Source: an uncultured Patescibacteria group bacterium
Lineage (GTDB): Bacteria > Patescibacteriota > Patescibacteriia > UBA2591 > CALHIP01
Direction of reading: 5' to 3'
NCBI GenBank assembly: GCA_938030745.1
Contig: CALHIP010000001.1
Location: forward strand, 3,817 to 67,816
Length of the DNA: 64,000 bases
In this document: one piece after another, positions 2,360 to 17,909 of the stretch
Numbering within the stretch: the stretch's first letter is position 1
Layout: each line of letters begins with the position of its first letter
Notes under the pieces: model-generated
Told to the model about the DNA's origin: nothing
Databases searched by the model: none
Seen by the model: only the letters and a program-made list of their open reading frames with translations
Position numbers and translations under genes: made by a program

Positions 2360-3163
2360 TCAATTAATCATTTGTAAGTCTTTTTTAATCTGTTCTTTTA
2401 GCTGAAGTAGACTTTTAAATTTCTTAACCTCTCTAATTTTTTTAACAACCTTAATTTCTATTTCTTTTTGATAAAGATTACCTGAGAAATCTTTGATAAA
2501 AATTTCTAAAGATGGTCCCTCATTGAAAGTTTCTTTGTAACCAAAATGAAGTAGGCCTTGATATATTTTGTCATTAATTTTTGTCTGAACTAGATAAACG
2601 CCGTGAGGTATATCTAAATCTTTTTTATCTAAGTTGGCTGTTGGAAAGCCAAGTAATCTACCTCGTTTAACCCCGGCAATGACTTTAGCAACAAAAGTAG
2701 TCTCTTTTGCCTGGCCTTCGCTGACCACTTTATAAAAACAAAGTAACAAAATCAGAGAAGCAATGATCTGGATACTATTTAAAACATTCTTGTTCAAAAT
2801 ATAATCTAAAACAACGGCGGAGAGGGGCCAAAATAATTCGCAAATTGTTGAAACTGAAGCTGTTACTCTTTTTAAACCAAAATAATAGAGAAACATTGCT
2901 GTTGCACCACTGGTAAAAACAATAACAATAAAAAGTTTCCATTGGAAACCGCTGATTTGAGGAATTTTAAAAAATTCACCAGTTAACAAAACCAAAATGA
3001 GCATTATTAAACTGGTAATACCAAATCTTAAAGCAGTAGTTGATTTGAAATCTAAGTGATTAACAATTCTTTTGCCAAAAACTGTTGACGAACCGAAAGC
3101 AAAAGCAGCTAAAAAAGCAAAAAAAGCAGCGTGATGGAATAAATCAATCTCTGAAGGATTCAA
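2360..3163 (-). CDS. Riboflavin kinase domain (C-terminal) fused to the C-terminal half of an EamA/DMT-type membrane transporter; 3' part of a frameshift-split gene
   Basis: C-terminus reads AKVIAGVKRGRLLGFPTANLDKK...GLLHFGYKETFNEGPSLEIFIKDF, the riboflavin kinase (RibF C-domain) signature. The N-terminal part is polytopic membrane. The reading frame stays open upstream of the annotated start and joins the next ORF after one frame change near 3235. Confidence 0.7.
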   Translation of the reverse strand: MNPSEIDLFHHAAFFAFLAAFAFGSSTVFGKRIVNHLDFKSTTALRFGITSLIMLILVLLTGEFFKIPQISGFQWKLFIVIVFTSGATAMFLYYFGLKRVTASVSTICELFWPLSAVVLDYILNKNVLNSIQIIASLILLLCFYKVVSEGQAKETTFVAKVIAGVKRGRLLGFPTANLDKKDLDIPHGVYLVQTKINDKIYQGLLHFGYKETFNEGPSLEIFIKDFSGNLYQKEIEIKVVKKIREVKKFKSLLQLKEQIKKDLQMIN

Positions 3164-3170
3164 ACCACTC

Positions 3171-3623
3171 TTACCAAATGCCAGAAAATAAGAAGCGACA
3201 ATTGCTAGAACCGCCCAGAAATAAAATTTCCGGCTTTAATTTTTCCTTTAAAATCAACCGGGCTAAAATTAAAGCAAAAACTGGCTGAAGTTTTTGTAAA
3301 ATAATGACTGTAGCAAAAGTCACTTCGCCATGAACAGCAGCAAAAAAAGCTTTGGTAATTGTAATTGTACCAATTGCTCCACCAAATAAACAGACCCAAA
3401 AAACTGCTTCCCAATCTTTTAAACTTAACTTTTGAATTTTGAACCAGCCCAAAAACAAAAAAGGACTCAAAACTAGAAAACCAAAAAAATGTTCCAGAAA
3501 AACTACTAAATTAGCTGGCAATTCATAAAATTTCGGCCTAATGAAAGTGCCATCCAAACTCCAAAACAAAGCAGCCAGCATAATCGCCAGTGCACCGATA
3601 ATAATTTTTTTATCAATTGTCAT
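3171..3623 (-). CDS. EamA/DMT-family transporter, N-terminal half (5' part of the frameshifted EamA-riboflavin kinase gene)
   Basis: 150 aa with TM helices. The EamA-like repeat continues in the other frame as FWAVLAIVASYFLAFGKSGLNPSEIDLF..., which joins ORF 2360..3163. Confidence 0.55.
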   Translation of the reverse strand: MTIDKKIIIGALAIMLAALFWSLDGTFIRPKFYELPANLVVFLEHFFGFLVLSPFLFLGWFKIQKLSLKDWEAVFWVCLFGGAIGTITITKAFFAAVHGEVTFATVIILQKLQPVFALILARLILKEKLKPEILFLGGSSNCRFLFSGIW

Positions 3624-5077
3624 TTTATCTTTCTTATAACCCCCTTATTGGCATCTACCTCAACCAAATCTCCATCTTTTAGGACTTTGGTAGCAATTTT
3701 TGTGCCAATAATACAGGGAATATTAAGTTCACGAGAAACAATGGCAGTATGAGATAAGAATCCACCCTCGTCAGTAATAATTGCGGCTGCTTTTTGCATT
3801 GCCGGAACAAAAGTAGGATTTGTCATCGGTGTGACTAAAATCTCTCCTTTTAAAAATTTAGAAACTTCTTTGGTTTCTTTCAGTATGTGAACCTTACCTT
3901 TAATGATTCCGCCTGGGCAGGCTACCATACCTCGGAGTTCTGTAATTGGAACACTGATCTCTTTAATTTTTTCTTCCTGATAATATTTTTTTAATTCTTT
4001 ACCACTTAAAACCTCTGATTCACCATTGCTAAAAATAATAGCATGATCCTTTATTCTTTTTTGTACTTCTTTTCTAGGAATAACCAATTTATTTTTCTCT
4101 AAACTGCTAATTATTTCTGATAATCGAAGTGAAACAACCCCTTCATAGGAAATTTTTAACCTCTTAGCAATTTCATCAAACAATCCTTTTAAATGATAAA
4201 TATAGTAATTGGTTGCTTCATTAGCAAAATTCATCGCATAAGAAGCCTTTTTCATTGCTTTTATTATTTTTTTCTCGTAATTGCTAAAACCATAGATAGC
4301 TAAATTAATTTTTTTAGTTTTTATCTTTTTTATCTCGTTTTTAATATATTCTTGTCCTTGTTTTATTATTTCTTTCACCCTTTTCTCTATTTCTTGAAAT
4401 GTATAACCTTCGCCCCAAAAATAATATTTATTGACAAAAGCATATTTCTTTAAATGATCAAAAAGGCGTTTTTTTAGAATTTTCTTATTCTTTATACAAT
4501 CATTAGCTATTCGTAATAAATTAAGCCTTTCTTTTCCAACCATGGTTATTTTCTCAGGTTTAGAGATAAATTCTATTATTTCGTTTAAATTTTTTTTATA
4601 TTTATCTTTTAATTTATTAATGAAATCCCTAATAAAAATATCGTTGAAGAAAAAATAATAAGCATACGGGATTCCGCCGCCCCAAAGTTTCGATTGCAAG
4701 TCTGTCATTTCTTCTAAAATTTTCGCCAACTCTCTATTGGTTAATTTTTCCCATTTCTTTTTTCTTAGTTTATTAGTTTTTTCAATTATCTTATTAGCTA
4801 TTTTTTCCATTCTTTGCCCATAAAAATAAAAATAATCCGGTTTTTTCTTGTGGATCTTGCTTAATAAATTGATTAAATTTTGGTAATCATCTTCTCCAAG
4901 ATGGCGAGCGCCATTAAATTGACGATAATTTTTTATTTTATAATCTATGCCGTAGATTATCTTGGCATAATTTTTTTTAATTCCCAATCCAACTCCATCA
5001 ACGTATAATAAAGCATGATTTTTGCCTCGCCGAGCAACCGGAATCCATTTTATTTTTCTTTTTATCATATTTTGCAT
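3620..5077 (-). CDS. PEP-utilizing-enzyme mobile (phosphohistidine swivel) domain protein with divergent N-terminal domain of about 390 aa; no ATP-grasp domain (paralog 1)
   Basis: C-terminus reads AIITDEGGFLSHTAIVSRELNIPCIIGTKIATKVLKDGDLVEVDANKGVIRKIK. This is the PEP-utilizers phosphohistidine motif with the catalytic His. The N-terminal domain is weakly homologous along its whole length to the other paralogs. Confidence 0.75.
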   Translation of the reverse strand: MQNMIKRKIKWIPVARRGKNHALLYVDGVGLGIKKNYAKIIYGIDYKIKNYRQFNGARHLGEDDYQNLINLLSKIHKKKPDYFYFYGQRMEKIANKIIEKTNKLRKKKWEKLTNRELAKILEEMTDLQSKLWGGGIPYAYYFFFNDIFIRDFINKLKDKYKKNLNEIIEFISKPEKITMVGKERLNLLRIANDCIKNKKILKKRLFDHLKKYAFVNKYYFWGEGYTFQEIEKRVKEIIKQGQEYIKNEIKKIKTKKINLAIYGFSNYEKKIIKAMKKASYAMNFANEATNYYIYHLKGLFDEIAKRLKISYEGVVSLRLSEIISSLEKNKLVIPRKEVQKRIKDHAIIFSNGESEVLSGKELKKYYQEEKIKEISVPITELRGMVACPGGIIKGKVHILKETKEVSKFLKGEILVTPMTNPTFVPAMQKAAAIITDEGGFLSHTAIVSRELNIPCIIGTKIATKVLKDGDLVEVDANKGVIRKIK

Positions 5078-5252
5078 CTTTTAAAATTAATCTTGTTTAC
5101 TATTCTTTTGATAAAAATTTCTAAAGATAGTGCTTCATTGAAAATTTTTTATAACCAAGTTAGATAGTGTTTAAAACATTTTTATTTAAATAATCTAAAA
5201 CAATAACTGAAAAGCTATAATAATTTATAAATTGTTAAAACTCAAGTTGTTT

Positions 5253-6743
5253 CTAACCAGCCTGTTTTATTTTTCTTACCACCCCTTTATCTGCATCAAC
5301 TTCAACCAAATCTCCATCTTTTAGGACTTTGGTAGCAATTTTTGTACCGATAATGCAGGGAATCTTTAGTTCTCTGGCGAGGATAGCAGCATGGCAGATA
5401 ATGCCGCCCTCGTCAGTAACAATGGCTTTTATCTTTTTTACATAAAGAGATATTTCTGGAGTAGTCATGGAAATGACCAATATCCTATTTGGTTTAATCT
5501 TTTTGTATTGATAAACACTATGAAGAATTTGAACCGGACCACAAACTTTACCTGGAAAAGCTACCATTCCTTCAATCTTTTTTAACTTTTGATATTCCTT
5601 TGGCACTTTTTCTAATTTTTTCAAAGCTTTTCCAGTGTAGATTTTAAGTCTACCTTTTATAAACACATATCCATAACCCTTTTTCCTTTCTTGAATATCT
5701 TTTTTTGTGCCTTTATCTTTTAATATTTCATTAATGGTCAACTCAATTATCTCATCGTAATTTAATTTTCTTCGCCGAGCAATCTCAGCTAACAAAGGTT
5801 TTAAGTAATAATGGGCTATACTCAAATCTTCTATTCTGGTTTGTCGCCAGAGGGTGGTTTCTTGAAGAGATCTCACATAGATAAAAAAATAAGAAGGAAG
5901 ATTTAATTTTTTAAGTTGAGTTATTATTTTTTTAAAATTAGCCTTTTCTTTTTGATAATCAGCTATTAAAACTTTTAAAGTTTTATTTGGATTGTTTTTT
6001 AAAGCTTCTTTTAGTTCGAAAATAACATCATTTAAGGTATATTCTTTAGCATTTAGAAGATAACTTCCTCTCCACTGGTATTTTTTTTGAAAAACTAAAA
6101 TTTTGGAAAAAAGTTTTTTTGAAATTCTTTTTAAAATTTCTTTGACATCTTTTTTTATAAAAATTTTTTTTATTTTTCTCTTTTTATTAATTTGACAAGC
6201 TAATTTAAGGAGTTCCTTTTTGAATTTTAAGTTACGGCTCGGCCGAGGTAAGATATTAAGACGATAAATAATTTCAGTTATTTCACTTTGACTTTTTTTA
6301 TTTTTTAACATCTTTTCTAATTTTTCTATAAGAATTTCTTCAAATAGCCAAGGAGTATAGATATAATTCCAGGCTGGTAAATAAATCTCTAATAATTTAA
6401 CAAACAGAGTTTTCAACTGTTTGGTTGTCATTTTTTTAAGATCCATCTGACTAATTTTTTTACCAGCCATTATCATTTTTTTGTTTTGGAAATTTTGATT
6501 TTTGATTGCATCAATTAAAACCCAGGCCGATTTTTTTAGTTTCTTTAAATAGTAATTTTTTGCTTTTTTAAAATCTGATTCTGCCAAAAAAGTGTTTCCT
6601 CCTATTCTTTTATAAAAAGAAAAATCAGGACAGCCTTGAACTCTCCGAGTATATTTAGTTATGGAAGTATTTACTATATCAGTAACTAATAAAGGGTGTC
6701 TTCCTCTTCCTACAATTTTTCTCCATTTGATTTTTTCTGTCAT
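5253..6743 (-). CDS. PEP-utilizing-enzyme swivel domain protein, paralog 2
   Basis: C-terminus reads AIVTDEGGIICHAAILARELKIPCIIGTKIATKVLKDGDLVEVDADKGVVRKIK. The N-terminal domain is divergent but alignable with 3620..5077. Confidence 0.75.
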   Translation of the reverse strand: MTEKIKWRKIVGRGRHPLLVTDIVNTSITKYTRRVQGCPDFSFYKRIGGNTFLAESDFKKAKNYYLKKLKKSAWVLIDAIKNQNFQNKKMIMAGKKISQMDLKKMTTKQLKTLFVKLLEIYLPAWNYIYTPWLFEEILIEKLEKMLKNKKSQSEITEIIYRLNILPRPSRNLKFKKELLKLACQINKKRKIKKIFIKKDVKEILKRISKKLFSKILVFQKKYQWRGSYLLNAKEYTLNDVIFELKEALKNNPNKTLKVLIADYQKEKANFKKIITQLKKLNLPSYFFIYVRSLQETTLWRQTRIEDLSIAHYYLKPLLAEIARRRKLNYDEIIELTINEILKDKGTKKDIQERKKGYGYVFIKGRLKIYTGKALKKLEKVPKEYQKLKKIEGMVAFPGKVCGPVQILHSVYQYKKIKPNRILVISMTTPEISLYVKKIKAIVTDEGGIICHAAILARELKIPCIIGTKIATKVLKDGDLVEVDADKGVVRKIKQAG

Positions 6744-6823
6744 AAATTAAAAATATTTTTATAAAGTAGCAATTGATCTCGATTCAACAATATAAATTTT
6801 TTTCTTTATTATCTAATTATTTA

Positions 6824-7597
6824 TTATGATTTTAATTTTTTAACTACTCCCTTATTTGCATCAACCTCAATCAGATCTCCATCTTTAATTAATTTTGTCG
6901 CATTTTTTGTTCCAATCACACACGGCTTTTTCATCTCTCGAGCTACTATAGCCGCATGAGAAGTAATTCCTCCTTCGTCTGTCACAAAGCCAGCAGCTTT
7001 TTGCATAGCAATAATTAAATCGGGGTTAGTAGCTCGACTAACTAAAATTTCCCCCTTCTTAATCTTTCCTATATCTTCTTTAAGATTAATAATTCGAGCT
7101 ACTCCTTTTACTTTACCTGGATAAGCACAATTTCCCTTTATCTGGGTTGTTTGGATTTCTGGTTTTTCTCTAATTAATTTTAAATATTTTTTACTTTCTT
7201 TTAAAGATAAGATTCTTATTTTCTTATCCACTGTCAACGAAACGCATCCTTTTTTAAGACGATTTTTTATCATCGATTTTATTTTTTTATTTAATAATTT
7301 TTTGTTCAACAGATATTTTTTTATTTCTTCTAAAGTAATAAATCTTGTTTCTGGTAAAGAAAATCCTAATCGTCTTCCAATTTCTTTTAAAATTGGTTCA
7401 AAACAAAAATTAGAATAAATCAAAAATTCCTTTCGGTAAGCTTTAAGAAAAATCATCGATGCTATTTTATTAAGTAATGATATATTTTCTTTCTTTAATT
7501 TTAACTTACCTTTCAAAGTCCTTTTCTGTTGACTAATAATTTTTTTATAATTTTTAATTTCTTTTATTTTCTCTTCCGGATTTTTAATTAATTTCAA
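6824..7597 (-). pseudogene. PEP-utilizing swivel domain paralog 3, C-terminal part of a frameshift-split gene (6824..8318)
   Basis: C-terminus reads GFVTDEGGITSHAAIVAREMKKPCVIGTKNATKLIKDGDLIEVDANKGVVKKLKS. The ORF is only 257 aa. Upstream ORF 7701..8318 is in another frame and looks like the N-terminal domain of the paralogs. The two together are about 496 aa. A T7 homopolymer at 7671-7681 sits in the gap. Confidence 0.6.
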
Positions 7598-7700
7598 ATT
7601 ATTTTTTAAAATTTGAACGATATCATTTTTACTCCAGGCCGGACCAATATAATAATAAGAAAGCCAACCATATTTTTTTACATGTCTTTCGATAAGTTGA

Positions 7701-8318
7701 TTAATTTTTTTTGTTTTTCCACCAATTTTTATTTTTTAACTTTTGAATTAAAACCTGAATTTTATATAAATCTAATTCATGCTTACGTTGATAAGTTATT
7801 TGCGTTGGAGTTGTTAGTTTACTAATATATTCTTTAATTTTGGGATTTGGTCCAATTTGTTTTTCAATTTCTTTTTCGGCAATTTCAAAAATAGATTTAC
7901 TTCCCATATCAACAAAATTTGGAATCCAAGCATAGATCCTTAGGGCCAGTGTTTTTTCAATAAATTTATTATAAATTTTTATTAATTGTCGATCGTTTAA
8001 AATCTCAGGGTTAATTTTTTTTAATTGGTCTGAAAATTTCTTTAAATTTCTACACTCTTTTATCATTTCTTTTTTAACTTTTTTATGAAATAAATTATCT
8101 TCGATTAACTTTTTTTGAGTAAAATCACACATCCTTTGCCAAGATTTTTTATCAACATACATTTTTATATTAGTCCCTCGATAAATACTTATAATTCTTT
8201 TACAGGCTATACCCAACAATTTTTTCACCGAATGAGTAGCGGCCAAATCCATTAAGAAAATAGGGAAAAAACTTGTCTGTTGACCTTCGAATATTTTTAT
8301 TAGAGAGTTTTTCTTCAT
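7701..8318 (-). pseudogene. N-terminal part of split swivel-domain paralog 3
   Basis: 205 aa, K-rich. It occupies the position and has the composition of the paralog N-terminal domains. It ends about 100 bp before the 6824..7597 ORF in a different frame. Confidence 0.5.
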
Positions 8319-8322
8319 AAAT

Positions 8323-9846
8323 TTATTCTCTTTTTAAAATTTTAACTCGATTGTGATTTGTGTTTATCTCTATTAAATCGTTATCGTGAAGGACCTTAGT
8401 TGCAACTTTAGTAGCAATGATGCAAGGAATCCCAAGTTCACGAGCAACAATTGCTGCATGGCAAGTAATTCCACCTTCGTCAGTAACAATACCTGCTGCT
8501 TTTTTAATAAATGGCATCCAATGAGGTCGAGTCATTCCAGTGACTAAAATATCTCCTTTTTTAATTTTATAACCATCTTTAATATCTTTAACAATTTTTG
8601 CTTTACCAATTACTACTCCAGAAGAGGCACTAACTCCTTTTATTTCACCAATTAATTTTTTCTTTTCTCCTAAAAATTCTTGATGCCATTTTTCGGCTTC
8701 TTTACCAACTAAAATCTTATATCTATTTGGCCAAATTAAATAAGCACAACACTTCATTCTTTGATGAATTAATTTTTTATCAAATTTCTTTTTCAAAAGC
8801 ATTTCTTCAATTTTGTGATGATCGGTATAATACATTTCTTGAAGTGATAAACCTAATCTTTTGCCGATTTCTTTTAAAACAATTGTAATGTAATAATTTG
8901 CTTCATTCATTACTGCTTTTCTTTGATCATGAAGATAACCAAAAAATTCTATCCATTTTAAAAGTCTTTTTGTTTCATTGTCTAATTTCAATTTTTTAAT
9001 TAAATTTTTCTTTTTTCGTTGATAATTTTTAACAACATTTTTCAGTTCCTTTATTTTCTTCTCTAAATCAATATTTTCCTTAAAGTAGCGTTGGATTTTT
9101 TTTAAGAAATAATCTACAGATAATTTAATACCTTGAGCATAACTATTTTTAATCCAGAAAAATTTTTCTTGATGTTCTTGGATAGATGACCAAATTAAAG
9201 ATTTTTTAATTAACTTTTTTGCTTTTTTATAATCCTTCTTTAAAATTTCAGCTAATTTTTTGTTTTTCTTTATCTTTTTAGCTATTTCTAAAAGATTTAA
9301 TTCCTCTTCGTTGGCCCAAGATCTCTTTTTGGGAAAAGTTAAAATTTCTAAATATTGAGCAAATTTTCTCGGTTGATCAATTTTTTCTAAATATTTTTTC
9401 AATTTTTCAGTAATAATTTTTTCTGTATGAAGTCCAAACGGATCACATAATAAAGCTGGAGAATATTCTTCTTGATAAAGATTGATTAATTTTCGGAAAG
9501 TTTTTGCCAATTCTTGATCAGAAAGTTTTCTCAGACTAATTTTTGAAATTTTTCTTTCAAAGTTTTTTAATCTTTTAACCCTCTTTTTCCATAATTTTTC
9601 AAGATTTTTTAGAAAATTTGGTTCTTTCTTTATTCTTCTAATAATTGCTTTTGCCTGTTTGTGAATATCTGGCCAAAGATAGCCAAAATAATTAATCCGA
9701 CCATGAGCATTAACACCTGGAGAAAATGGCTTTTCCATACCTTTGCCGAAATCTTTTAAAGTGTTAACGGTTTCTGCTTCAGCTGCAATAAAAGAAAGAA
9801 GTAATACTCCATCCATTCTTTGAACAAAATATTTTGGTTCTTTCAT
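8323..9846 (-). CDS. PEP-utilizing-enzyme swivel domain protein, paralog 4
   Basis: C-terminus reads GIVTDEGGITCHAAIVARELGIPCIIATKVATKVLHDNDLIEINTNHNRVKILKRE. 507 aa. Its 3' end has diverged at the nucleotide level from the other copies. Confidence 0.75.
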   Translation of the reverse strand: MKEPKYFVQRMDGVLLLSFIAAEAETVNTLKDFGKGMEKPFSPGVNAHGRINYFGYLWPDIHKQAKAIIRRIKKEPNFLKNLEKLWKKRVKRLKNFERKISKISLRKLSDQELAKTFRKLINLYQEEYSPALLCDPFGLHTEKIITEKLKKYLEKIDQPRKFAQYLEILTFPKKRSWANEEELNLLEIAKKIKKNKKLAEILKKDYKKAKKLIKKSLIWSSIQEHQEKFFWIKNSYAQGIKLSVDYFLKKIQRYFKENIDLEKKIKELKNVVKNYQRKKKNLIKKLKLDNETKRLLKWIEFFGYLHDQRKAVMNEANYYITIVLKEIGKRLGLSLQEMYYTDHHKIEEMLLKKKFDKKLIHQRMKCCAYLIWPNRYKILVGKEAEKWHQEFLGEKKKLIGEIKGVSASSGVVIGKAKIVKDIKDGYKIKKGDILVTGMTRPHWMPFIKKAAGIVTDEGGITCHAAIVARELGIPCIIATKVATKVLHDNDLIEINTNHNRVKILKRE

Positions 9847-9860
9847 AATTGTTTAAAAAC

Positions 9861-10487
9861 TTAAGTTATTATAGATTTTTTTAATTTTTTTTCATTTTTT
9901 ATTATATCGTAGAGACTGCCTATTTCCCAATAATTATTTTTTTTACGAATACCAAGGTCATCATTCTTAATATGATAAACTCTTATTTTAAGATTTTCAA
10001 TACTTTGAGCGGCATTAAGAAAAAATAGACAATTTTCTAATTTATCGTCAGTATAAACAATTTCTTTATATCCTTCTTTTACTTTGTCTTCTAAAATTTT
10101 TGTAATCATTTCCTTAGTCTTTTTATTTGTATTACCAAAATCAAAGGTGCTAATAATTTCTTTAAAATAAGGTCTAATATCAAATAATCCTTTTTTTAAA
10201 AAATATTCAGCCCGCCAATCAATTTGTTCTTTATTACCGGTAGTAAAAACAATGTTATTTTTTGTCCAAGACAAAACTTTTTTAAAACCTTTAGCAATTT
10301 TTAACTTAAAGAGACCTTCTCTGTAAGGTCTTTCATAGGCTCGTTCATAATCAAGTGGCGAAATAGTTTTTAAATCATAACCAAGTGATTCAACATATTG
10401 ATCATAATTTTCAAAACCAGTACTTTTATCCCATTCTTCAGGAAACAAAGTATTAGCCAAATCCCAAATGTACAATCTCTTACTCAT
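9861..10487 (-). CDS. HAD-superfamily-like hydrolase (variant motif I), hypothetical
   Basis: N-terminal LYIWDLANTLF resembles HAD motif I (FDLDNTL) with the second Asp replaced by Ala. FTTGN fits motif II and VYTDDKLEN fits motif IV. The assignment is tentative. Confidence 0.35.
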   Translation of the reverse strand: MSKRLYIWDLANTLFPEEWDKSTGFENYDQYVESLGYDLKTISPLDYERAYERPYREGLFKLKIAKGFKKVLSWTKNNIVFTTGNKEQIDWRAEYFLKKGLFDIRPYFKEIISTFDFGNTNKKTKEMITKILEDKVKEGYKEIVYTDDKLENCLFFLNAAQSIENLKIRVYHIKNDDLGIRKKNNYWEIGSLYDIIKNEKKLKKSIIT

Positions 10488-10537
10488 TGATCAAAAGAGA
10501 AATGATTAATCAATTAAACTTAAAAGAAGTGAATACT

Positions 10538-10637
10538 TTATTTTAATTTTTTAACTACTCCCTTATTTGCATCAACTTCAACCAAATCTCCATCTTTTAG
10601 GACTTTTGTAGCAATTTTTGTAAAGATTTTTAAAAAG
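10538..10637 (-). pseudogene. Orphan 3'-terminal remnant of a swivel-domain paralog fused behind the ATP-grasp gene
   Basis: 10549-10625 is nearly identical at the nucleotide level to the last ~80 bp of paralogs 3620, 5253 and 12133. It encodes ...TKIATKVLKDGDLVEVDANKGVVKKLK. There is no upstream swivel domain. Confidence 0.6.
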
Positions 10638-11579
10638 CTATAACGTAGTGATCGGTCTTGACTGAACGATGTAGAATTTCTTTTTTTCATAAGCCCACTC
10701 AATATCGCAAGGAAAACCATAATGATCTTCAATTTCTTGACAGATCTTTGCTAACTCTAAAATTTTTTGATTTGGTAAACATTGTTTACTGGCAATCTTT
10801 TTTGGTACTTTAACAATCTTTGTTTTAGCGCCAACCCTAATTATTTTTGTTCTTTGCTCATTAATATTAATATCTATAATTTTCGGCTCTTTCCCTTTTT
10901 CTATAACATAAGTATCAGGAGTAACTTGACCAGAAACAACTGATTCACCCAATCCCCAACTTGCTTCAATAACCATCTGAGTTTGGTCACGAGTAACTGG
11001 ATGAACGGTAAAAGCTACACCAGCTACCTCTGATTCAACCATTTTTTGGACAACAACCGCCACTGAAACTTGTTTGCCATGCAATTTTTTTTCAATCCGA
11101 TAAAAAATTGCTCTTGGTGTAAAAAGTGATGACCAACATTTTTTAACTGTTTCAACAACCTTTTTTCGATCAACTCCTAAATAACTTTCTAATTCACCAG
11201 CCCAGGAAGCAACTCTTGAATCTTCAGCGGTAGCAGACGAACGAACAGCTACATACTTAGCGGATAGTTTATCAAAAGCAGATAAAATTTCTTTTTGAAT
11301 ATCTTTTGGTACTTCATATTGACTAATTATTCCCCTTAAAAATTTTGAAACTTTTTCTACGGTAGAAACTTTTTTAGGATTAACCTTCTTTAGTTGAGCA
11401 TCAATTTCAACATCGATATGATAATTTCTAATAAAATCTTCAAAAGCTTGACTTAAAACAACAAAACCTGGTGGAACAGGAATACCAACTTTAGTCATTT
11501 CTCCCAAAGAAGCTCCTTTCCCACCGGCAATTTTTATATCTTTCATATCCAATTCCTCAAATTTTTTTATAAATTTCAT
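10638..11579 (-). CDS. Stand-alone PPDK_N-type ATP-grasp nucleotide-binding domain protein (PEP synthase / rifampin-phosphotransferase N-domain family)
   Basis: MKFIKKFEELDMKDIKIAGGKGASLGEMTKVGIPVPPGFVVLS...VAVRSSATAEDSRVASWAGE...FPCDIEWAYEKKKFYIVQSRPIT. This aligns with the N-domain of the ppsA at 15510..17909. It stops after the ATP-grasp domain at 313 aa. Confidence 0.8.
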   Translation of the reverse strand: MKFIKKFEELDMKDIKIAGGKGASLGEMTKVGIPVPPGFVVLSQAFEDFIRNYHIDVEIDAQLKKVNPKKVSTVEKVSKFLRGIISQYEVPKDIQKEILSAFDKLSAKYVAVRSSATAEDSRVASWAGELESYLGVDRKKVVETVKKCWSSLFTPRAIFYRIEKKLHGKQVSVAVVVQKMVESEVAGVAFTVHPVTRDQTQMVIEASWGLGESVVSGQVTPDTYVIEKGKEPKIIDININEQRTKIIRVGAKTKIVKVPKKIASKQCLPNQKILELAKICQEIEDHYGFPCDIEWAYEKKKFYIVQSRPITTL

Positions 11580-12132
11580 AGTTTAAATTTAATTATTTTC
11601 GGCAAAATTTTTTTCTTTAATCTAGCAATCAATTATTTATTAAGATTTAATTCTAGTAAGGGTTTGACTGATTTAATCAAAATTTTTAAATCATTATTTA
11701 GAGATTTTAGATCATATCTCGACAATTTCCCGATACTTCTGCCAATTAATCAAATCATTTTTCAATAAGGTACAATAAACCCTTCTCGACTTTTTGGTAT
11801 ATTTTTTAATTTTTTCTACTGAATGAAAATTTATGAAAATAATTTTTCTCTAAGGGTTACTAAAAATCTTTAGCATACCATTCAGTTAAATTCCAAAGAT
11901 CAATATAAAAATGTTTAAAAACTTTTTCTCCATCAATAACTTAAAAACCCTTCTTCTCACCTCTATAGCTACTGTTTGGCGAGGAATTTTTGAGCTAATT
12001 CCTTATTTTCTATTATATTCGAAACAAAATTCTCAGTCAAGCTTTGATATTTTTCTTATTACAAATAAAAGTTGGTAGACAATTTTCCTAAAAAAGCAAA
12101 TATATATGTCGGCTTTTTGTATAGATCAAGAG

Positions 12133-13599
12133 TCATCTTTTTTTTATAATCTTCACCACTCCCTTATTCGCATCAACCTCAACCAAATCTCCATCTTTTA
12201 AAACTTCAGTGGCAATTTTTGTGCCAATAATACAGGGTTTGTTTAATTCTCTTGAGACAATGGAAGCATGGGAAGTTATACCTCCTTCATTAGTAACAAA
12301 AGCAGAGGCGCGTTTCATAATCGGAACAAAATCAACTGAAGTCATTGTTGTAACAATAATATCACCATCTTTAAATTTATGAAAATCTGAACTTCCTAGA
12401 ATAATTTTAGCGATTCCTTTCACTTTTCCTTTATTAGCAATCATACCTTTTATTTCTTTTACTTTGATTACTTTTTCTTTTTTAGGAATCACTATCTCTT
12501 TTAAAAATAATTTAACAATTTTTGGAGGAAGTAATCTAAAACCTTGTTTATTATTTGCATATTCTAAACCGGTAACCTTTCTCTTTGGTAAAACCTTTAA
12601 AACCTTTTTATCATTTTTGTAATATAATTTTTCAATCTCTGCTGGAGTTAATTTCCAAATCTCTTTCCATGATGATAAATTAAATTTATGAGCAATTTCT
12701 TGAAAAAGGGGTCGATAGGCTAAACTGGCTCGAGAAAAAACATTTTTTCGCCACTCATTAAGGTATGTTCCTATTTGAAGGGATAAGGCAATCTGAAGAA
12801 TTCTTGGATTATTGATTTTCTTTAAAATTTTATTTCGTTCTTTAATTTTTATTTGATGTGATTTTAGTAAAATTTTTATCTCTTTTTGACAATTAATTTT
12901 AAGAATTTCTTTAATTTGAGAAAAAATATCATCAATACTCCATGGCTCTTCATTGAAATTTACTGGGATATGACTATATTTTCTTCTATAAAGTTCAACC
13001 ATTTCATTAATTTTTTCATTTTCTTTAAAATTCTTGATCTCATTTTCTTGAATATATCTACCAATTTTGAGTAAAGAAAGTTGAGAATTAAAAAGAGGCG
13101 TGCGTTCTTTGGGATAAGTAATTTTACTTGCTATAAATTCAATCTCTTGTTTATTTTTTAAAGGATAGAGTTTTGCAAGTTCTTCAATTAAGAGTTCGTG
13201 CATTATTCTTCCTAGAGTAGCAGTTAAGGGTAAAGAAGGTGTAAATTTTTCGTATGCTTCTATAAATTCACGATAAGTTTTTAAAGAAAAATCTTTCTCA
13301 ATTTTTTTAGATGCTTCAAGTAATTTATTACCATAATTTTTATATATTTTTTTGAGACTTTTTATTCTAGGTGAAAGACAAAGTTGAGTAACGCTATTTC
13401 CAAAATTTCTCAATATTTCTTCATTGTTAAAAATTGTTGTCCGAGTACCATTTTCAGTAATAATTGGAATTTGATAGCGAGGGGAAACGCCGAAATTTTT
13501 TGCATATCTAACAACACCCATTGTCTCACAACAATCATGAAAAAATGACATATTCCGAGTGACAAAAACTTCCCAATTTTTGTTTTTATATCTAATCAT
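12133..13599 (-). CDS. PEP-utilizing-enzyme swivel domain protein, paralog 5
   Basis: C-terminus reads AFVTNEGGITSHASIVSRELNKPCIIGTKIATEVLKDGDLVEVDANKGVVKIIKKR. 488 aa with a divergent N-terminal domain. Confidence 0.75.
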   Translation of the reverse strand: MIRYKNKNWEVFVTRNMSFFHDCCETMGVVRYAKNFGVSPRYQIPIITENGTRTTIFNNEEILRNFGNSVTQLCLSPRIKSLKKIYKNYGNKLLEASKKIEKDFSLKTYREFIEAYEKFTPSLPLTATLGRIMHELLIEELAKLYPLKNKQEIEFIASKITYPKERTPLFNSQLSLLKIGRYIQENEIKNFKENEKINEMVELYRRKYSHIPVNFNEEPWSIDDIFSQIKEILKINCQKEIKILLKSHQIKIKERNKILKKINNPRILQIALSLQIGTYLNEWRKNVFSRASLAYRPLFQEIAHKFNLSSWKEIWKLTPAEIEKLYYKNDKKVLKVLPKRKVTGLEYANNKQGFRLLPPKIVKLFLKEIVIPKKEKVIKVKEIKGMIANKGKVKGIAKIILGSSDFHKFKDGDIIVTTMTSVDFVPIMKRASAFVTNEGGITSHASIVSRELNKPCIIGTKIATEVLKDGDLVEVDANKGVVKIIKKR

Positions 13600-13809
13600 A
13601 AGGTTGCAATTGATCGGCTTTGAACTATGTAAAGCTTATTCTTTTCCAAGGCCAATTCGATGTCTTAAGGTAATTTATAATGTTTTTCTATTTTTTCACA
13701 CAAATTAGACGATTCTAAGATTTTTTCATTACTTAAGACCTGTTTTGGTTGAAGTTTTAGTACCGCTAATGTCTTTGTTGTATCGACAAATTCTCTTAAT
13801 CATTGTTTT

Positions 13810-14340
13810 CTAGATGTTAACATTAATATCAATAATTTTGTTTTTTTTATCAACCACGTAAGTATCTGGCGTTACCTTACCTGCTACCACATTCTCTTCT
13901 AACTCACGGTTTGCCTCAATCACAAGTTGGTTCTTATCTTTGGTTACTGAAACTACGCCAGCAACTTCGCTTTCAATCAGTTTTTGAACTAATACTGCCA
14001 CTTCACCGGCCCAGGAAGCTAATTTTGAATCTTCAGCTGTGGCCGAGCTTCTTACTACCACATACCTTGCCTTTAATTGATCAAATCATTCCAAAATTTC
14101 TTTCTTTATATTTTTGCTGCTAAAATAAGATTTCTGATCAGTTTAGAAGTCATTTCTACTGTCGCAATTTCTTTTGGATTAACTTTCTTTATTAAGGCAT
14201 CAATCTCAACATTAATATCACTTTCTTTCAAAAACTTGACTTAAAACAACAAAACCTGGTGGAACAGGAATACCAACTTTAGTCATTTCTCCCAAAGAAG
14301 CTCCTTTCCCACCAGCAATTTTTATGTCCTTTTTTGTCAA
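13810..14340 (-). pseudogene. Decayed duplicate of the PPDK_N ATP-grasp domain gene
   Basis: 14225-14325 is nearly identical to 11440-11540, the 5' end of gene 10638..11579. It reads KKFEELTKKDIKIAGGKGASLGEMTKVGIPVPPGFVVLSQVFE, but the start ATG is changed to ACA, there is an in-frame stop soon after, and there are further frameshifts. Fragment 13810..14061 still encodes VRSSATAEDSKLASWAGE. Confidence 0.7.
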
Positions 14341-14368
14341 CTCTTCAAATTTTTTAAATTTTTAAAAA

Positions 14369-15077: not shown

Positions 15078-15193
15078 TTTTCTAATTATATTTTAATTAA
15101 ATTTTTAAAAAAATCAATTCTTTTTTATTTTCTGCCCTTCCATATTAATGTGTTAACACACTGAATGAGGATTTTTTTGCTCTAATAAAACAT

Positions 15194-15227
15194 AAAAAAA
15201 CGGTCCGGATTAAATTCCGGACCGACT
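15194..15227 (-). terminator. Rho-independent terminator hairpin
   Basis: Perfect 9-bp stem CGGTCCGGA-TTAAAT-TCCGGACCG. On the minus strand it is followed by a T7 run, just downstream of ORF 15239..15442. Confidence 0.6.
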
Positions 15228-15238
15228 AAAAATAATTG

Positions 15239-15442
15239 TTAACACCATCTTCTTAATTGAGGGTTGTTTAGATAGGTTTGGCCACGGCCACTTCCTCCTT
15301 TATTATTTTGCCTTAATTTCTTTTGCCTTAATTTCTTCTGAATTTTTCCCATCCATCTTCTATGTTGTCGTGAACGAGGATTAAATTTTTCTCCATATAT
15401 TTCTTCAAAAATTTCTAATTCTTCTTGTGTTGGTTTTTTCAT
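15239..15442 (-). CDS. Small basic hypothetical protein (67 aa)
   Basis: Good Shine-Dalgarno sequence (AAGGAGGAAGAA) before the ATG and a terminator hairpin downstream. Arg/Lys-rich. Contains a direct DNA repeat (15311-15343) encoding KKLRQKKLRQ. Confidence 0.4.
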   Translation of the reverse strand: MKKPTQEELEIFEEIYGEKFNPRSRQHRRWMGKIQKKLRQKKLRQNNKGGSGRGQTYLNNPQLRRWC

Positions 15443-15509: not shown

Positions 15510-17909
15510 TTATCTCATAATTTCCTCCTTTTTATTTTTTTCTGTTTTTAAAACTTCAAGGGTGGTCTTTAACACTGTATCTGGATTTAAGGAAATTGAA
15601 TCAATTCCTTCTCTCACTAAAAATTTAGCAAAATCAGGAAAATCAGATGGTGCTTGACCACAAATACCAACTTTTCGGCCATATCGATGAGCAGTTTTAA
15701 TTAACTGACGAATAAGTTTTTTAATTGCCTCATTTCTTTCATCAAAAAGATGAGCCACCAGTTCTGAGTCACGATCAAGACCAAAAGTAAGTTGAGTTAA
15801 ATCATTTGAACCAATTGAAAAACCATCAAAAATTTTTGAAAATTCTTCAGCTAAAATAATATTTGAAGGAATCTCTGCCATCACATAAATTCGAAGCGGT
15901 CTTAAATTTTTTATTTTTTTTCTTAAGCCAAATGAATCAATAATTTTAATTACCATTTTTCCTTCTTCTGGTGTCCGGCAAAATGGGATCATCACTATCA
16001 CATTATCTAAGCCAAAAACTTCGCGAACTTTTTTAATAGCCAAACATTCCAACCCAAATGCTTCTTTAAACTTTTCATCATAATATCTCGAAGCACCGCG
16101 CCAACCAATCATTGGATTTGCCTCTTTTGGTTCATATTGGCTACCGCCAATTAAATTAGCATACTCATTGGTTTTAAAATCGGAAAATCGAACAATTACA
16201 TCTTTAGGATAAAAAGCAGAAGCAATTTTGCCAATACCTTCAGCCAATTTGTCAACAAAAAATTGTTTTTTATCTTGATAACCAAAAGTTAATCTATCAA
16301 TTTGTTTTTTTATCTCCTTTGGTTGTTTTTTATAATTAATTAAAGCTAAAGGATGGATTTTGATTTGATTAGCAATGATAAATTCCTCGCGGGCTAAACC
16401 AACTCCATCATTTGGAATAAAAGAAAGAGAAAAAGCCTGATCTGGTTCACCTAAATTCATCATTATTTTCGTTTTTGGTCTTTTAAACTTAGCTAAATCT
16501 ATCTTTTTGATCTTAAATGGAAGAATCCCTTGATAAACAAAACCTTTTTCACCTTCGGCACAAGAAACAGTTACTTCTTGGCCATTTTTTAAAACTTTCG
16601 TTGCTTTCATTGTTCCTACTACACATGGAACACCAATTTCACGGGAAACAATTGCAGCATGAGAAGTCCTTCCTCCAGTATCGGTAATAATTGCTGAAGC
16701 TATTCTCATAATTGGTTCAAAATCAGGGTTGGTTGTTTGAGCAACTAAGACTTCTTTTTCTTTAAAATTGACAAGGTCTTTTATCCTTTTTATTACCCGA
16801 ACTCTTCCTTGGCCAATTTTTGAACCAATAGCTAAACCTTCAAGTAATACCTTCCCTTTTTTCTTTAAAATATATTCTTCTAAAAAATCAATTTTTTTTC
16901 TTGAAACAACTGTTTCTGGTCTAGCTTGCAAAATATAAAGTTTTTTATCTTTACCATCTTTTGCCCATTCAATATCCATTGGCCGTTTATAATGATCTTC
17001 AATTAAGCAAGACCAGCGAGCAAGAGTTAAAATTTCATCTTCTGTTAAAGCAAATTTCCTTTGTTCTTTTTTAAAAACAGGAACATTTTTTGTCCCTTCT
17101 TTTTTATCATAAATTAATTTTTTTTCTTTTTTTCCTATTCTTTTCTCAATGATTGGTCTAAATCCTTTTTTTAAAGTTTTTTCAAAAACATAGTATTGAT
17201 CAGGTTCAACTCTTCCTTTAACCACATTTTCTCCAAGACCATAGGAAGCGTTAATCAAAACAACATCAGCAAAACCAGTTTCGGTATCGCAAGAAAACAT
17301 TACTCCAGAAGAAGCTAGATCAGAACGAACCATCTTTTGAATACCAACTGATAAGGCAACTTTTAAATGATCAAAACCCATATTTTCTCGATAGGAAATA
17401 GCGCGATCAGTAAAAAGAGATGCTAAACACTTTTTAACGGCCGTCAAAAGTTGACTATCTCCTTTGACATTTAAAAATGATTCTTGTTGGCCAGCAAAAC
17501 TTGCCCTTGGTAAATCTTCAGCAGTAGCTGATGAGCGGACCGCTACATCTAAATTTTTTGTTTTATATTTATAAGATAATTTTCGATAAGCTTTAATTAC
17601 TTCTTTTTCTAAATCTTTTGGCAATTCTGTTTTTAAAATTAGATCTCGAATCTGTTTTGATTTTTCTTTTAACTCTTTTATATTTTTAACATTTAAATTT
17701 TTTAAAATTTCTTTAATTTTTTTCTTTAAACCGGTTTTCTCTAAAAATTGCCAATAAAAAAAAGAGGTGGTAGCAAAACCATCGGGAATATTAATTTTTT
17801 TTCCTAAAGCCTTGATCATTTCACCTAAAGAAGCATTCTTTCCGCCAACTAGAGGAACATCTTTAATACTTATCTCTTTAAACCAACAGATCAATTTTTT
17901 CATAATCAA
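15510..17909 (-). CDS. ppsA: Phosphoenolpyruvate synthase (pyruvate, water dikinase), full three-domain form
   Basis: 799 aa. N-terminal ATP-grasp (VAVRSSATAEDLPRASFAGQ), central swivel domain (TDTGGRTSHAAIVSREIGVPCVVG) and C-terminal PEP/pyruvate TIM-barrel domain. Confidence 0.85.
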   Translation of the reverse strand: MIMKKLICWFKEISIKDVPLVGGKNASLGEMIKALGKKINIPDGFATTSFFYWQFLEKTGLKKKIKEILKNLNVKNIKELKEKSKQIRDLILKTELPKDLEKEVIKAYRKLSYKYKTKNLDVAVRSSATAEDLPRASFAGQQESFLNVKGDSQLLTAVKKCLASLFTDRAISYRENMGFDHLKVALSVGIQKMVRSDLASSGVMFSCDTETGFADVVLINASYGLGENVVKGRVEPDQYYVFEKTLKKGFRPIIEKRIGKKEKKLIYDKKEGTKNVPVFKKEQRKFALTEDEILTLARWSCLIEDHYKRPMDIEWAKDGKDKKLYILQARPETVVSRKKIDFLEEYILKKKGKVLLEGLAIGSKIGQGRVRVIKRIKDLVNFKEKEVLVAQTTNPDFEPIMRIASAIITDTGGRTSHAAIVSREIGVPCVVGTMKATKVLKNGQEVTVSCAEGEKGFVYQGILPFKIKKIDLAKFKRPKTKIMMNLGEPDQAFSLSFIPNDGVGLAREEFIIANQIKIHPLALINYKKQPKEIKKQIDRLTFGYQDKKQFFVDKLAEGIGKIASAFYPKDVIVRFSDFKTNEYANLIGGSQYEPKEANPMIGWRGASRYYDEKFKEAFGLECLAIKKVREVFGLDNVIVMIPFCRTPEEGKMVIKIIDSFGLRKKIKNLRPLRIYVMAEIPSNIILAEEFSKIFDGFSIGSNDLTQLTFGLDRDSELVAHLFDERNEAIKKLIRQLIKTAHRYGRKVGICGQAPSDFPDFAKFLVREGIDSISLNPDTVLKTTLEVLKTEKNKKEEIMR

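Follow-up and report, generated by a model that had tools for sequence, protein, structure and literature searches.

Within the 64,000-nt stretch of DNA analysed here (the window; positions 3,817-67,816 of contig CALHIP010000001.1, assembly GCA_938030745.1, from an uncultured Patescibacteria group bacterium), an array of subunit genes occupies 3620-14361 on the minus strand. Judged by its predicted products, the gene set is one of five tandem substrate-binding, phosphate-carrying subunits, one separate ATP-binding subunit and a haloacid dehalogenase (HAD)-like protein, referred to below as X208. By analogy with characterised enzymes, we propose, with a probability of roughly 60%, that the locus encodes a two-component small-molecule dikinase system resembling rifampin phosphotransferase (RPH) and organized as a hub with spokes. 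A preliminary description of the same DNA had interpreted the locus as a split, modular phosphotransferase system, and both the architecture and its conservation supported that interpretation. The genes on which the proposal rests, together with a phosphoenolpyruvate (PEP) synthase gene close to the array, are:

3620..5077, minus strand: paralog A, 485 aa, central (RPH-like) domain plus His swivel domain; PF00391 E 7.5e-26 (residues 410-479), family profile E 1.4e-126
5253..6743, minus strand: paralog B, 496 aa, central plus swivel domains; PF00391 E 1.7e-23, family profile E 9e-135
6824..8318, minus strand: paralog C, about 497 aa; PF00391 in the 6824-7597 part, frame broken in this assembly
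8323..9846, minus strand: paralog D, 507 aa, central plus swivel domains; the conserved core subunit
9861..10487, minus strand: X208, 208 aa, HAD fold with a small cap
10638..11579, minus strand: stand-alone ATP-grasp (PPDK_N) subunit, 313 aa; PF01326 only, E 5e-101, positions 2-311 of 328
12133..13599, minus strand: paralog E, 488 aa, intact; PF00391 E 2e-24, family profile E 4.6e-125
15510-17909: ppsA, a full three-domain PEP synthase (NF005057, 1207 bits)

All the open reading frames (ORFs) of the preliminary description were present at the positions it gave. A Pfam scan of A-E returned PF00391 at each C-terminus (E 1e-23 to 1e-28) and no other domain, hence no ATP-grasp, and the profile alignment identified the C-terminal domains as genuine swivel domains with the catalytic His; the phospho-His motif T[DN]EGGxxxH was found in all five paralogs. 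Full-length identity among the five was 30-35%, with means of 54% for the swivel domains and 26% for the central domains. These results agree with the earlier statements that the paralogs have no nucleotide-binding domain, that every copy retains the catalytic His and that the N-terminal domains are homologous, if very divergent. PF02896, the C-terminal PEP/pyruvate-binding TIM barrel, was absent from all five paralogs and within the window occurred only in ppsA, whose three Pfam PEP synthase domains identify it as the full-length gene previously noted nearby. As had also been described, 10638..11579 encodes PPDK_N alone, PF01326 being its single Pfam domain, and it is the sole intact ATP-grasp in the window apart from the domain inside ppsA. 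A family-profile search of the 64-kb window found no paralog copies beyond those of the array.

The preliminary description had regarded only the C-terminal ~100 aa of the paralogs as recognisable, which proved incorrect, as profile and structure comparisons placed the N-terminal domains in the RPH/PigC type. NCBIfam profiles of PigC, RedH, RPH and PRK06241 aligned to D far beyond the swivel domain, the PigC profile covering D residues 79-503 with its positions 451-881 (103 bits), and a profile built from 46 family members aligned to residues 651-866 of RPH-Lm. In structure, the divergent domain is a homolog of the part of RPH that binds rifampin, so that the relationship to an RPH substrate-binding module envisaged earlier was borne out. 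Nearly invariant residues are found in the central domain across the family, including D307-x-R309-K310 (D numbering), which in the profile alignment lies on the helix corresponding to that of RPH Arg666/Glu667/Lys670. RPH cannot carry out its second phosphotransfer without Arg666 and Glu667 (PMC4844700). The family sequence Q-D-E-R-K was aligned onto R666-E667-Y-P-K670 of RPH, in a register that is uncertain at 18% identity. Subunit D retains all family-conserved residues, including D307/R309/K310 and His463, and the R-K of the D-x-R-K motif is kept in D, E and C, while A and B do not have it (N/A/N in the motif columns of A).

Following the characterised homologs HpeHI, CreHI, PpsAB and RPH, a catalytic cycle of two steps can be suggested. 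The ATP-grasp subunit (10638-11579) would bind ATP and, with release of AMP and Pi, charge a separate subunit at its swivel His with the beta-phosphate; this swivel would then swing back to the RPH-type central domain of its own subunit and hand the phosphate to a bound small molecule. A single ATP-grasp is probably common to A-E, which would then act on five different substrates, one each.

To place the locus among its relatives, we scanned one genome per species with an X208 profile, which yielded 29 loci, surveyed as 20-kb stretches rather than as whole genomes; the paralog survey comprised 141 paralogs in 30 loci. The 29 loci were mostly labelled Patescibacteria or candidate phyla radiation (CPR), with three Gammaproteobacteria, one Ignavibacterium and two given just as 'bacterium'. 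The X208 proteins on the contigs labelled Ignavibacterium sp. (L006/L008) and Gammaproteobacteria (L021, L023 and L034) were 39-75% identical to the Patescibacteria protein; these other-phylum labels probably reflect mis-binning, horizontal transfer being less likely. Every one of the 29 loci carried between one and ten tandem central-plus-swivel genes on the same strand, and exactly one stand-alone ATP-grasp was located within 10 kb in 17 of them. Taken together, the comparison showed that subunit D, the ATP-grasp and X208 form the core of the system.

Among relatives with a long contig, the closest was L001, whose D ortholog is 73% identical; it carried seven tandem paralogs, X208 and a 311-aa PPDK_N gene, after which comes the gene for a swivel protein of 350 aa. 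Two more distant loci had five and eight paralogs together with X208, one of them with a PPDK_N gene followed by a 494-aa paralog. The ATP-grasp gene directly adjoined a paralog in L001, L004, L014, L022, L036 and L039, and minimal forms were also observed, with one paralog, X208 and the ATP-grasp in L034 and a D ortholog directly followed by the ATP-grasp in L039. The largest paralog orthogroup, present in 18 loci, always adjoined X208, and in L032 (8393-10630) a D-type subunit was fused to X208 in one 746-aa frame. An independent fusion, of a central-plus-swivel protein to a classical HAD (PF13419), was found in P0277, and classical HADs were present in 11 related clusters. Paralog turnover was high, clustering at 45% identity leaving 50 of the 141 paralogs as singletons. 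Among the 30 loci, D had full-length counterparts of at least 45% identity, whereas A, B and E had none. The best match of C there was a partial one of 41%, this gene being split in the present assembly and not scored full-length.

No ORF joined an ATP-grasp to a central domain among the 141 paralogs. Searching with a profile of the central domain only, we recovered 3339 cluster representatives, 1759 of which reached an E value of at most 1e-10, and the best 150 of them were almost all 470-525 aa long with the domain starting at the N-terminus; in this ~500-aa architecture the central domain of the relatives begins at residue 1-60. None of the best 150 of the 3339 was fused to an ATP-grasp, including ten of 686-1500 aa that were scanned with Pfam, and the longer relatives consisted of two to four fused paralog copies. 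The preliminary description had raised the possibility that paralogs of closely related genomes are parts of single full-length ATP-grasp genes; none was fused, so that the locus does not appear as a set of decayed fragments. Five relatives of 1500-2309 aa with three or four central-domain copies (P0195, P0196, P0198, P0278 and P0290) could be real polyproteins, products of gene calling across reassigned stop codons, or assembly artefacts. An apparent fusion of some homologs to UDP-GlcNAc 2-epimerase (PF02350) was rejected, the matches being below the gathering score and overlapping the swivel domain. In turn, the stand-alone ATP-grasp proteins formed a tight family, the best 120 homologs being 58-82% identical, 305-350 aa long and composed of PF01326 only.

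Proteins of ~265, 288 and 347 aa with no Pfam domain recurred in related clusters (6-8 loci each) and were absent from the window; examples are found at L004 12820-15277, L001 14614-15639 and L006 13715-14755. Pfam analysis of the accessory proteins (~265, 288, 320 and 347 aa) gave only a weak M29 peptidase match and a classical HAD. The recurrent proteins may be further components of a pathway.

The array also contains remnants that bear on its origin:

6759..6806, minus strand: probable ATP-grasp 3'-end relic, 16 codons, KKKIYIVESRSIATL*, 15 nt upstream of the B start
10540..10621, minus strand: orphan 3' tail of a deleted swivel-subunit gene, 82 nt; profile positions 489-517
~13599..14361, minus strand: ATP-grasp pseudogene with several frameshifts; pieces of the hidden Markov model match in different frames

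The pseudogene spans ATP-grasp model positions 6-312 with an internal deletion at ~131-173, and its DNA is 74% identical to 11193-11576 and 66% identical to 10649-10931. Three-frame translation showed that it terminates in its own stop ('SIATL*') immediately before the ATG of E. The relic, located in the 80-nt spacer upstream of B, matched ATP-grasp model positions 299-313 (hmmsearch, E 0.0015 in a small search), and its peptide KKKIYIVESRSIATL resembles the ATP-grasp C-terminus KKKFYIVQSRPITTL, both peptide and DNA aligning with the intact and pseudogene copies; short as it is, it is probably the remnant of an ATP-grasp gene. At the DNA level, the orphan tail and the 3' ends of A, B, C and E share 84-90% identity, and the reading frame of the tail differs from that of the ATP-grasp gene immediately upstream of it. 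Both the decayed ATP-grasp copy and the orphan tail of the preliminary description were thus real, and only their limits required correction, the former being larger than 13810..14340 (~13599-14361) and the latter lying at 10540-10621 rather than 10549..10625. Gene conversion was considered for the near-identical 3' ends and found not to be needed, the same peptide being a family-wide consensus; amino-acid constraint together with AT-rich codon bias can explain their 80-90% DNA identity.

Together, the pseudogene, the relic and the orphan tail suggest that the array grew by duplication of pairs consisting of an ATP-grasp gene followed by a subunit gene, after which redundant ATP-grasp copies would have decayed, an origin that is shown in part. 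The remnants indicate that three ATP-grasp copies were reduced to one, with the subunits behind the two lost copies (E and B) kept intact and the partner of the survivor deleted. Since E is intact behind the pseudogene and B is intact behind the probable relic, the ATP-grasp copies appear to have been redundant. The presence of intact, pseudogenised and relic ATP-grasp copies in one window offers a rare snapshot of array formation.

Gene C had been described as split. Its two ORFs are real (profile positions 32-211 and 225-517), and the split itself amounts to a single homopolymer base, as a three-frame read located the break at one extra A in the poly-A run 7705-7712 (T8 on the plus strand). 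An independent assembly from another read set (L037, ERR9287632) differed from window positions 6836-10569 by a single base, having A7 where the window has A8, and its version of C had an open frame of at least 494 aa. Because L037 has A7 and an open frame, C is probably intact, or variable in length within the population. The difference at 7705-7712 would be due to an error of assembly or else to slipped-strand variation in the length of the run, by which gene C would be switched on and off.

Given these remnants, the array might be regarded as a non-functional graveyard of fragments from once full-length three-domain genes, and real decay is indeed present in the form of the ATP-grasp pseudogene, the orphan swivel tail, the probable relic and the frameshift in C. 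However, the ~500-aa architecture is the norm in the 3339 representatives and the 141 paralogs, with no PPDK_N among those scanned; A, B, D and E are intact and every swivel motif is retained; and the frameshift in C is absent from the independent assembly. In addition, the decayed ATP-grasp was a separate gene, because its own stop precedes the ATG of E. The decay hypothesis is therefore largely refuted, and we consider it very improbable. The sharing of one ATP-grasp by A-E is argued for by the one-to-many gene ratio, by a gradient of conservation running from the hub to the docking domain and then to the substrate domain, by E and B having survived without ATP-grasp genes of their own, and by the persistence of the ATP-grasp although its adjacent partner was lost. 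The gradient (58-82% for the ATP-grasp across relatives, 54% and 26% for the swivel and central domains in the window) is in keeping with one docking partner common to subunits whose substrate sites have diversified. Several points weigh against this reading. No ATP-grasp was present in the 20-kb stretch of 12 of the 29 loci, and the archaeal locus (L002) is a lone paralog with no ATP-grasp nearby; moreover, the sharing is deduced from gene counts in such stretches and not in whole genomes. HpeH alone transfers phosphate from 4-phosphoacetophenone to acetovanillone (PMC12167813), and by analogy some paralogs might not need the ATP-grasp. The transfer of the mechanism is an extrapolation, the central domains not matching PpsA/HpeH-type profiles; A and B, with no clean D-x-R-K, may be catalytically different or inactive; and the substrate classes put forward (antibiotic, metabolite or surface chemistry) are conjectural.

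Some of these points would also fit an arrangement in which only the subunit adjacent to the ATP-grasp uses it, the other paralogs working as small-molecule phosphotransferases, as HpeH can, or being charged by PEP/PpsA or another donor. An ATP-grasp followed by one paralog is the canonical order in L001, L004, L014, L022 and L036, the loci with no nearby ATP-grasp would be accounted for, and a full ppsA lies 2 kb away. Nevertheless, the neighbour of the ATP-grasp in the window has been cut to an 82-nt tail, yet the ATP-grasp is intact and conserved, so that it must serve non-adjacent subunits, if any. That E and B remain intact although their own ATP-grasp copies are gone, and that the swivel domains of all paralogs are much better conserved than the central domains, also argues against this arrangement, which we regard as unlikely. 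The subunits could instead be activating ligases of the PigC/RedH kind, in which phosphorylation would prime a carbonyl or enol oxygen for a condensation leading to a metabolite or an envelope component. PigC (103 bits, positions 451-881) and RedH gave the best full-length NCBIfam matches of the D central domain, and the Pfam-less ~265, 288 and 347-aa proteins of related clusters could be pathway enzymes. The PigC score is, however, far below the family cut-off (103 versus 1300 bits), the cluster in the window has none of those accessory genes, and the recurrent partners of HAD type suggest phospho-ester products, making this a rather unlikely explanation. Lastly, a detoxification or resistance battery, inactivating antibiotics or host toxins as RPH does, rather than a role in metabolic salvage, would be in keeping with the description of the rifamycin-inactivating RPH family as a proto-resistome (PMC4844700) and with the turnover of paralogs, including the 50 singletons and the missing full-length counterparts of A, B and E. 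Against it, the RPH equivalog models were not matched (46-86 bits, cut-off 999), no PADLOC defence model matched, the context is one of housekeeping and salvage (an EamA-flavokinase fusion in the window; a phosphoribosyltransferase and a nucleoside phosphorylase in L001), and core subunit D and X208 are strongly conserved; we find it quite unlikely. Anti-phage defence was also considered and dropped, as PADLOC gave no meaningful match.

X208 had been called HAD-like, and its predicted structure is a HAD Rossmannoid fold with a cap, obtained with high confidence, though motif I is atypical. No Pfam or NCBIfam match was found even at E values up to 1, and no PDB sequence matched. In the family alignment, motif I reads W-D-[LM]-A-[NGD]-T (DxAxT), with Asp9 as the nucleophile and a nearly invariant Ala11, and not DxDx[TV], the Ala replacing the second Asp, which is the general acid/base. 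The same alignment contains TTG at 82-84, an invariant K123, an invariant D147 and a nearly invariant D148; from their positions in the predicted fold, TTG, K123 and D147-D148 would correspond to HAD motifs II, III and IV. The homologs of X208 fell into 71 clusters, and all the named ones were Patescibacteria- or CPR-labelled except for one 'Ignavibacterium sp.' record. X208 itself showed 75%, 69% and 50% identity in loci where most paralogs reached just 30-40%. Remote links of X208 to a 221-aa neighbour in the archaeal locus and to the classical HAD of related clusters were examined with hhalign, and neither was significant.

Ala also occupies the Asp+2 position in phosphonatase, and Thr occupies it in P-type ATPases; substitution there suits substrates with good leaving groups or long-lived aspartyl-phosphates. 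With the HADs that lack the Asp+2 general acid (phosphonatase, L-2-haloacid dehalogenase and P-type ATPases), X208 has in common the Rossmannoid core, the nucleophile Asp, the Thr/Ser, the Lys and the DD pair. Unlike them, it matches no HAD Pfam profile and is always found inside a dikinase array. Lack of the general-acid Asp would be compatible with a substrate whose leaving group is good, for instance phospho-His or a phosphate of the aryl, enol or acyl type. We speculate that X208 is suited to the activated aryl or enol phosphates made by this enzyme superfamily, and, equally speculatively, that its target is either the compound phosphorylated by the D-type subunit or the phospho-enzyme itself. 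X208 delineates a family within the HAD fold whose active-site motif is unusual.

Around these genes, a 553-nt non-coding spacer (11580-12132) separates E from the ATP-grasp gene. It is unusually long for a compact genome, and no gene remnant or Rfam element was detectable in it. The spacer contains one further feature:

12012..12040, minus strand: promoter-like site upstream of the ATP-grasp gene, TTGACT, 17-nt spacer, TATAAT; 11/12 consensus

Its assignment as a promoter is only suggestive, as promoter-like sites were not enriched over shuffles in this AT-rich region (67 versus 61 +/- 8). Downstream of A, two minus-strand ORFs together encode an EamA-type transporter. The ORF for its first half (3171-3623) overlaps gene A (3620-5077) by 4 nt, and in the other (2360-3163) the second half is joined to a riboflavin kinase domain (PF01687, E 1.7e-31). 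The 7 nt that separate the two ORFs could reflect a frameshift or a genuine split. The EamA-flavokinase may constitute a riboflavin import-and-trap module co-transcribed with the array. The neighbourhood of L001 contains a phosphoribosyltransferase and a nucleoside phosphorylase, and overall the gene context gives weak hints of a salvage role; the recurrent HAD partners suggest phospho-ester products. An Rfam scan for a riboswitch or other RNA element that might give a clue to the ligand returned only tRNA and a sub-threshold RsaF-like match at 15121-15231 (31.5 bits versus a gathering score of 60, E 0.009). A GC-rich terminator hairpin at 15201-15224, downstream of a very basic 67-aa ORF with no Pfam match (15239-15442), coincides with this match, which is most likely just the terminator.

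A wider reading can be offered tentatively, as something we hold to be somewhat less probable than even. Patescibacteria and some DPANN archaea may run a modular phosphorylation network with a logic loosely like that of the PEP-dependent phosphotransferase system, in which one conserved ATP-grasp 'charger' would load the swivel His of up to ten fast-diversifying carrier/specificity subunits with phosphate, each subunit trapping or activating another scavenged metabolite at the cost of two phosphoanhydride bonds, and in which a dedicated new HAD enzyme would be coupled to the single universally conserved subunit. If so, the network would represent a major unrecognised part of metabolite acquisition by reduced, host-dependent cells. 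The family is large, with ~3300 clusters at 50% identity and up to ten copies per ~1-Mb genome, and thereby takes up about 1% of the coding capacity of cells that are otherwise extremely economical with genes; its substrates would reveal which host- or environment-derived molecules CPR bacteria phosphorylate.

Split dikinases of this type have precedents, so that the preliminary description was mistaken in treating the splitting as unprecedented: PpsAB, CreHI and HpeHI have been characterised as two-component RPH-like dikinases, with a separate ATP-grasp, an essential His and AMP as a product (PMC12167813). Like these, the system in the window has the ATP-grasp as a distinct protein of ~35-40 kDa, a partner protein in which an RPH-like substrate-binding domain precedes the C-terminal His swivel, the T/SxxGGxxxH motif and neighbouring component genes (here in the same cluster and on the same strand), and RPH is the sole solved structure that aligns over the entire large subunit. 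In contrast, the large subunits are ~490-510 aa here and 600-640 aa in HpeHI/CreHI/PpsAB; each ATP-grasp gene is accompanied by 1-10 paralogs instead of one; a dedicated X208 partner is present and aromatic-catabolism genes are not; and the hosts are Patescibacteria and DPANN-type organisms. NCBIfam models of the PRK08296 type, which we take to represent the PpsA/HpeH type, matched the swivel region alone (e.g. D residues 395-506), with 55-98 bits against cut-offs of 578-730. Because these models match only the swivel domain, the subunits appear to belong to a different clade from PpsA/CreH/HpeH.

The comparison with single-chain enzymes gave a similar picture. RPH (PDB 5FBS/5HV1; PMC4844700) is one polypeptide of ~865 aa with a fused ATP-grasp, whereas the components are split here; identity to it is 18%, scores reach 46-86 bits against the NF041857/NF000283 cut-off of 999, and the substrate pocket is not conserved. 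The prodiginine ligases PigC/RedH/HapC and the 'PEP synthase-like' PRK06241 belong to the same ATP-grasp/central/swivel superfamily and gave the best profile matches to the D central domain, but they are fused three-domain proteins of ~880 aa that catalyse condensation via a phosphorylated intermediate, and the matches were far below cut-off. The ppsA product in the window shares 42% identity with the ATP-grasp in its N-terminal domain and 34-45% with the paralog swivels in its own swivel; unlike PEP synthase and pyruvate phosphate dikinase, the paralogs have a helical RPH-type domain in place of the PEP-utilizers_C TIM barrel. By the cut-offs of those families' own models, the system is not RPH, PigC or PEP synthase. 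A limited literature search found no published description of these arrays. The split architecture was thus already known, and what is new is the separate clade, the layout of one ATP-grasp to many subunits in Patescibacteria and the dedicated HAD-like partner. If one ATP-grasp does serve many subunits, two-component dikinases would extend from isolated catabolic pairs to a combinatorial system.

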